This document shows, in pieces, positions 23,553-23,935 of a stretch of 64,000 bases of DNA. The first letter of the stretch is position 1, and the number at the start of each line of letters is the position of its first letter. Under the pieces are notes generated by a model. The model searched no databases and was not told the origin of the DNA. It saw only the letters and a list, made by a program, of their open reading frames with translations. The stretch is from NCBI RefSeq assembly GCF_003018115.1, contig NZ_CP027457.1. The stretch is one strand, 5' to 3'. This DNA is from Escherichia coli. GTDB taxonomy: Bacteria; Pseudomonadota; Gammaproteobacteria; Enterobacterales; Enterobacteriaceae. Both the position numbers and the translations under genes were made by a program.

Positions 23553-23935
23553 CGCCGGATGCGACGCTTGCCGCGTCTTATCCGGCCTGGGGGATTGCAC
23601 ATGTAGGGCGGATAAGGCGTTCACGCCGCATCCGCCAGTGGCCGCGGTGCAGATGCCGGATACGACGCTTGTCGCGTCTTATCCAGCCTACGGGAACGAA
23701 CATGTAGGGCGGATAAGGCGTTCACGCCGCATCCGCCGGCGCGGTGCAGATGCCGGATGCGACGCTTGGCGCGTCTTATCCGGCCTACGGGAACGAACAT
23801 GTAGGGCGGATAAGGCGTTCACGCCGCATCCGCCAGTGGCGCGGTGCAGATGCCGGATGCGACGCTTGCCGGGTCTTATCCGGCCTGGGGAACATACATG
23901 TAGGGCGGATAAGGCGTTCACGCCGCATCCGCCAG
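23553..23935. repeat. large BIME array: four tandem units of paired inverted REPs
   Basis: Seen directly: about 95-bp unit 'gccggatgcgacgcttgccgcgtcttatccggcct...gtagggcggataaggcgttcacgccgcatccgcc' repeated four times with small variations. Confidence 0.88.

Follow-up and report, generated by a model that had tools for sequence, protein, structure and literature searches.

Bacterial interspersed mosaic elements (BIMEs), which are built from repetitive extragenic palindromic (REP) sequences, include two classes that differ in composition. BIME-1 elements are single copies of z1 and y REPs with a long L linker, which often carries a site for the integration host factor (IHF), whereas BIME-2 elements combine z2 and y REPs in multiple tandem copies with a short S linker and s, l or r flanks, and their variability in copy number at individual loci has already been described (PMC3333891). 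Here we analysed a stretch of 64,000 nucleotides of Escherichia coli (assembly GCF_003018115.1, contig NZ_CP027457.1), referred to as the window, in which a tandem repeat array lies between the genes ygjK and fadH. This feature is a BIME-2 element and consists of non-coding repetitive DNA. From its position, its predicted folding and the analogy with REP325 and other REPs, we propose that it probably works as a block of stable hairpins at the 3' end of ygjK and as a Rho-assisted attenuator.

The locus is already known. For REP/BIME arrays in general, descriptions of the Y/Z2 make-up, the variable copy number and the proposed roles go back to the 1980s and 1990s. The ortholog in K-12 is entered as 'BIMEs2', with a length of 282 and coordinates 3231031-3231313, in Table DS3 of a Topo-Seq study (PMC6379681), and we checked the offset between this table and the MG1655 coordinates against the neighbouring higB-rlmG BIME. 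The supplement of a 2026 preprint names the same element REP231, described as 'Tandem, ygjK-fadH', at MG1655 3231253-3231535 (10.64898/2026.03.23.713779). No REP features were listed at this locus in the RefSeq K-12 records that we examined, and a literature search found no paper naming ygjK, fadH and REP together.

REP231 of K-12 MG1655 and the window array share the locus, the 12-nt spacer after the stop codon, the 130 bp to the fadH ATG and the Z2-S-Y-l design. They differ in that REP231 has 3 units, in the order A-B-A according to the S linker, while the window has 4, in the order A-B-B-B'; moreover, small indels in the l linkers of the window give units of 101, 97 and 100 bp, compared with 100 bp for the K-12 units. 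A second described system is REP325, located between yjdM and yjdN and known as the source of naRNA1-6. It also consists of tandem Y/Z2 units with a period of 100 between co-oriented genes, but it has 6 units instead of 4, another l linker and the canonical 16-nt inner palindrome in Z2, and its orientation relative to transcription is opposite to that of the window array.

Tandem Repeats Finder reported a single array at window 23554-23935 (period 97, 3.8 copies, 91% matches, score 636), with four copies in register spaced by 101, 97 and 99-100 bp. Dissection at the base level resolved these copies into 8 alternating REPs, that is, four pairs of a Z2-type REP and an inverted Y-type REP. On the plus strand each unit reads as a Z2 REP of 34 nt, an S linker of 14-15 nt, GTAG, a Y REP of 30 nt and an l linker of 14-18 nt; the inner sequence is GCGACGC...GCGTC in the Z2 REPs and GGCGTTCACGCC in the Y REPs. 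Repeat finder and dissection therefore agree with the initial annotation that a BIME array of four REP pairs lies between fadH and ygjK, although the 95-bp period given there was slightly low: the copies are spaced by 97-101 bp here, and in other strains by exactly 100 bp. The array, 382 bp long, sits inside the 522-bp intergenic region that separates the stop codon of ygjK from the start codon of fadH. The two genes lie on the minus strand, which places the array 3' of ygjK and 5' of fadH, starting 12 nt past the ygjK stop codon and ending 130 bp upstream of the fadH ATG. The parts of the locus, in window coordinates, are the following.

23554..23935: BIME-2 array of four tandem Z2-S-Y-l units, ortholog of K-12 REP231 (Tandem Repeats Finder, dissection)
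23554..23590: Z2 REP of unit 1, nearest fadH, matching the published probe of fadH CRP site 1 in K-12 (dissection)
23603..23636: Y REP of unit 1 (GTAG + 30 nt), in opposite orientation to Z2; sense-strand hairpin of -21.3 kcal/mol
23655..23691: Z2 REP of unit 2 (dissection, fold)
23704..23737: Y REP of unit 2 (dissection, fold)
23752..23788: Z2 REP of unit 3 (repeat finder, dissection, fold)
23801..23834: Y REP of unit 3 (dissection, fold)
23852..23888: Z2 REP of unit 4, ending in CTGG and not CTAC; weakest hairpin, -15.6 kcal/mol
23900..23933: Y REP of unit 4, the first hairpin for a transcript leaving ygjK (dissection, fold)
23934..23948, minus strand: ygjK stop codon TAA (23948->23946) with the 12-nt spacer TTTGCAACGGCT that precedes the first REP
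23946..26297, minus strand: ygjK (alpha-glucosidase / glycoside hydrolase), upstream of the array
21405..23423, minus strand: fadH (2,4-dienoyl-CoA reductase), downstream of the array
23424..23553, minus strand: 130-bp promoter-proximal flank of fadH, with the equivalent of CRP site 2 (23548->23504) and a FadR-like box (23469->23453)
23481..23550, minus strand: C-rich, G-poor, rut-like tract that follows the array immediately on its 3' side (sense strand)

The assignment to BIME-2 follows from several features of the array: alternating Y and Z2 REPs in inverse orientation, short linkers (S of 14-15 nt, l of 14-18 nt) with no long L linker, tandem copies (4 in the window and 0 to 5 in other genomes) and an extragenic position between the ygjK stop and the fadH start. 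The array shares with BIME-1 elements, also called RIP or RIB (Y and Z1 REPs with an L linker), the inverted REP pairs between genes. On the contrary, BIME-1 is single-copy with Z1 and a long L linker bearing an IHF site, while the window array has Z2, short linkers and no IHF core; a search for Z1 gave no match within the array. IHF binding, which the initial annotation had mentioned for such arrays, was considered and rejected, as the IHF site belongs to BIME-1, the Y + Z2 composition places the array in BIME-2 and no core WATCAANNNNTTR occurs between 23424 and 23945. The IHF core has four matches in the window, all of them outside the array and no more than expected by chance.

On the sense strand all 8 REPs form hairpins, with energies from -15.6 to -21.9 kcal/mol, and the fold of the whole region reaches -208.7 kcal/mol with z = -6.9 relative to shuffled sequences (z = -5.1 for the other strand). 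Directly downstream, the tract 23550->23481 contains 40-46% C and 6-12% G in 50-nt windows of the sense strand. On these grounds, a transcript coming from ygjK would meet eight stable hairpins, the first one only 12 nt beyond the stop codon. These hairpins would stop 3'->5' exonucleases, so that the 3' end of the ygjK mRNA (the ygjJK transcript) may be set and protected by the array. Together with the C-rich, G-poor tract they would also allow Rho to halt read-through ahead of the fadH promoter, which would be insulated from it by this Rho-assisted attenuator. The mRNA that the array could stabilise is that of ygjK, fadH being downstream with its own promoter. That promoter is under the control of FadR, ArcA and CRP (PMC3460868), and in RNA-seq data the baseMean of fadH is about three times that of ygjK (398 vs 125) (10.64898/2026.03.23.713779). 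The array might in addition dampen translation of YgjK: REPs located less than 16 nt from a stop codon were reported to lower the translation of the gene upstream (Liang 2015, cited by PMC12306157).

Published data on Rho and on REP325 are in line with such a role. In vitro, Rho-binding sequences overlap 78 REPs, of which REP231 is one, the K-12 peaks on the sense strand being 3231489-3231743 without NusG and 3231491-3231736 with NusG (10.64898/2026.03.23.713779). Transferred to window coordinates, the peak extends over about 23599->23345, across the final Z2 REP, the C-rich tract and the leader of fadH. REP325 stabilises the upstream yjdM mRNA and attenuates downstream transcription in a partly Rho-dependent manner (preprint 10.64898/2026.03.23.713779).

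Several observations weigh against a role as hairpin block and attenuator. The Rho peak was obtained in vitro; of REP231 it covers the last 44-46 nt and no more, lying mostly in the fadH leader. REP effects are context-dependent, and terminal REPs generally do not prolong mRNA half-life (10.64898/2026.03.23.713779). The REPs themselves have no U tails, and a consensus scan for intrinsic terminators returned one weak site (23559->23542) against 1.0 expected; the same kind of scan showed no sigma-70-like promoter. Finally, some lineages carry an allele without any BIME, and the array is therefore dispensable.

We then compared the locus across strains, using a collection of 5,426 complete E. coli genomes; this collection is strongly biased to clinical and laboratory strains, and the fractions given here describe the collection and not natural populations. 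For the survey of alleles, BLAST was run with the two flanks only, which makes the ranking independent of array length, and 60 genomes were sampled evenly down the ranking. Four units, as in the window, were present in 5/60 genomes; three units were found in 21/60, K-12 derivatives among them, two units in 15/60 and one unit in 12/60, whereas 4/60 had no BIME and in 3/60 the locus was split. The representative alleles that we dissected had intergenic lengths of 170, 225, 325, 425 and 525 bp. A synthetic five-unit query retrieved in addition a five-unit allele in strain ET350 (NZ_CP100966.1; L010:553-1039; 4.9 copies, period 100). Four units are thus not the maximum of the collection, and the observed range comprises 0, 1, 2, 3, 4 and 5 units. 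The strain-variable copy number anticipated by the initial annotation was in this way borne out by comparing unit counts across genomes.

The units fall into two types according to the S linker, which is TGGGGGATTGCACAT or a close variant in type A and TACGGGAACGAACAT or a close variant in type B. The order of units in the alleles is the following.

AR_451 (1 unit): A
O91 RM7190: A-A
K-12: A-B-A
O157: A-B-B-B
ET350: A-B-B-B-B
window: A-B-B-B'

From these orders across strains we conclude that the array expands by duplication of internal B units. Units 2 and 3 of the window are 97% identical, which likewise points to an internal duplication. From one E. coli lineage to another, unit number differs by entire 100-bp steps; the simplest cause is unequal recombination or slippage between the units, possibly assisted by the REP-associated transposase TnpA-REP (RAYT). 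Among the genomes listed, the length is that of 4 units in all O157:H7/O55:H7 strains and that of 3 units in all K-12 derivatives; unit number thus looks fixed within the listed lineages, as in a slow polymorphism and not in phase variation. The spacer between the stop codon and the first REP keeps its 12-nt length in all BIME alleles examined, with one substitution between alleles, the fadH flank measures 130 bp in each of the dissected alleles that carry a BIME, and the hairpins are intact in all units and alleles dissected.

Two other structures were observed at the same position. All of the 4/60 sampled genomes with the BIME-less allele showed lower flank identity (95.1-96.5%). In one strain with this allele, SF-173 (NZ_CP012631.1; L004:553-585), the intergenic region measures 170 bp and an unrelated hairpin, ATGCCGGACG...CGTCCGGCAT, occupies the place of the array and ends 9 nt from the ygjK stop codon. 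In about 5% of genomes (252-270/5,426), a single-copy insertion of 1.9 kb lies between the Z2 and Y REPs of a one-unit BIME, as in E. coli TUM1226 (NZ_CP135719.1, L003:4030-5950). It encodes a hypothetical protein of 513 aa with three internal repeats of ~140 aa, for which no match was found in Pfam, PADLOC, NCBIfam or PDB sequences.

Is a function for the host needed to explain such an array? It could also be a repeat of the selfish or neutral kind that recombination or TnpA-REP (RAYT) has spread and amplified, and that is tolerated because of its position between genes; we consider this possible, if somewhat improbable. The range of 0 to 5 units and the existence of a BIME-less allele speak in its favour. 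So do the feet of the units: GTAG/CTAC are intact in the amplified internal units of the window, while the edge units 1 and 4 carry CTGG. Moreover, BIMEs are cleaved and recombined in vitro by TnpA-REP, and variable copy number is typical of them (PMC3333891). On the other hand, hairpins preserved in all units and alleles dissected, distances of 12 nt and 130 bp that stay constant in every BIME allele examined, and the measurable local effects of comparable arrays speak against it. The neutral explanation is compatible with all the data and also with a local regulatory effect of the hairpin block.

A link with the regulation of fadH came from the mapping of a published CRP site. CRP site 1 of fadH was shown by electrophoretic mobility shift assay by Feng & Cronan 2012 (PMC3460868), a study in which REP, BIME and palindromes are unmentioned. 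Exact mapping places the probe of this assay at MG1655 3231498-3231545, corresponding to the fadH-proximal Z2 REP plus 11 nt; its equivalent in the window is 23585->23543 on the minus strand. In the Z2 variant of this locus, the inner palindrome is a CRP-like core, CGCGA-N6-TCGCA, which recurs with 1-2 substitutions in each of the window's four Z2 copies. In the BIME-less allele CRP site 1 is absent and CRP site 2 is kept. Combining this overlap with the copy-number series, the array and its flank might form a copy-number-tunable cassette for ygjK/fadH with a CRP site donated by a REP, a proposal that we hold to be unlikely. If it were true, the hairpins and the Rho tract would set read-through from ygjJK into fadH as well as the stability and translatability of the ygjK mRNA, the series of 0-5 units would give lineage-specific expression, and a mobile REP would have donated an activator site that is absent from BIME-less lineages.

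The array could instead act chiefly at the DNA level, as a gyrase site absorbing supercoiling between two transcription units. The class as a whole is enriched for gyrase cleavage in vivo, preferably at Y REPs and independently of transcription (PMC6379681), and the window array has four Y REPs. However, cleavage is found only in a subset of BIME-2 elements, and the K-12 ortholog had 0 Topo-Seq sites with ciprofloxacin, rifampicin + ciprofloxacin, microcin B17 and oxolinic acid, compared with 35, 13, 3 and 10 sites under the same conditions for the tldD-yhdP BIME-2 of similar length (PMC6379681). Cleaved elements such as sucB-sucC and tldD-yhdP belong to the same class but show multiple in vivo sites, and none occur at the K-12 ortholog. 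Considering these results, a function centred on gyrase is decidedly unlikely, and the suggestion of gyrase binding in the initial annotation is not supported for this locus, the K-12 ortholog having no cleavage site in any of the four Topo-Seq conditions.

The units also match the Rfam model of naRNA4, which raises the question of whether they are genes of this small RNA (sRNA) family, whose products would bind HU and condense the nucleoid. The matches above the gathering score are the following.

23606-23688, plus strand: naRNA4 (RF02564) match, Y-l-Z2 unit
23707-23785, plus strand: naRNA4 (RF02564) match, Y-l-Z2 unit
23804-23885, plus strand: naRNA4 (RF02564) match, Y-l-Z2 unit

The three plus-strand scores are 74.7, 67.9 and 65.1 bits (gathering score of RF02564, 59.5), and naRNA4 was defined on the same Y-l-Z2 unit type in REP325 (PMC4550694). 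On the contrary, both in the window and in K-12 the passing matches are antisense to ygjK and fadH, while the REP325 matches have the sense orientation of yjdM->yjdN; scores on the sense strand are 48-54 bits, below threshold; and no sigma-70-like promoter was seen by consensus scan. Matches of the naRNA4 model also fall on BIME-2 units unrelated to this array, at window 51920-51990 and between phnE1 and phnD in K-12; the model therefore recognises the repeat family and not a specific gene. In addition, a 2026 preprint, with the original senior author (Adhya) as co-author, reports no measurable nucleoid role of REP325/naRNA4 (10.64898/2026.03.23.713779). It is thus very improbable that the units are naRNA4 genes. 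The BIME at window 51915-52045, with the REP order Y - Z2 - Y, gives the top naRNA4 score of the window (79.3 bits, 51920-51990).

We also considered that the four-unit count might be an artefact of assembly collapse or expansion, as tandem 100-bp repeats are prone to short-read mis-assembly. This is extremely improbable: the window is identical (100% over 1501 bp) to five independent complete assemblies, including two labelled O169:H41 as well as strains F9792 and F8111-1SC3, four-unit alleles occur in unrelated lineages including O157:H7 and O55:H7, and the 382-bp array fits within single long reads. The concern about collapse raised by the initial annotation is answered by these five identical assemblies and by the 4 units in all listed O157:H7/O55:H7 genomes.

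Finally, palindromic repeats spaced by ~100 bp, crossed by open reading frames (ORFs) of 175 and 170 aa, could evoke a CRISPR array or real genes.

23518..24045, plus strand: spurious ORF of 175 aa running through the repeats, antisense to the 3' end of ygjK
23744..24256, plus strand: spurious ORF of 170 aa running through the repeats, antisense into ygjK

The probability of either is negligible, as the S and l linkers are themselves repeated in place of unique spacers, so that the array is not a CRISPR, cas genes are absent from the 4 kb flanking it on each side (the neighbouring genes are ygjI, ygjJ, ygjK, fadH, rlmG and ygjP) and the repeats are canonical REPs occurring at many loci (matches in 5425/5426 genomes, at a median of 6 places per genome). 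The regular palindromic direct repeats are indeed shared with CRISPR arrays, but the REPs of the window alternate in orientation and are dispersed genome-wide. As for coding capacity, three ORFs across the array had no Pfam match at E<=1, and no coding sequence is annotated in the gap in the 100%-identical genome F9792. The initial annotation was therefore right in calling the resemblance to CRISPR superficial and the two long ORFs, both of which exist mechanically, spurious.

Elsewhere in the window, rlmG adjoins fadH at 21295-21404, where the higBA toxin-antitoxin pair of K-12 MG1655 is absent, as it is in TUM1226. Two tandem SIB RNAs (RF00113) on the plus strand, at 59910-60059 (139.5 bits) and 60286-60435 (149.8 bits), and one tRNA on the minus strand, at 39514-39586, are ordinary known features.

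In conclusion, the array has small weight as a discovery, the locus being known as REP231. For annotation, the region is best handled as a repeat mask, so that long ORFs and CRISPR-like calls are not propagated, and the Rfam naRNA4 matches are best read as 'BIME-2 unit' and not as sRNA genes. For the biology of these elements, the series of 0-5 units, the Rho tract and the overlap between a REP and a CRP site make the locus a convenient natural test bed for the study of REPs in 3' untranslated regions.

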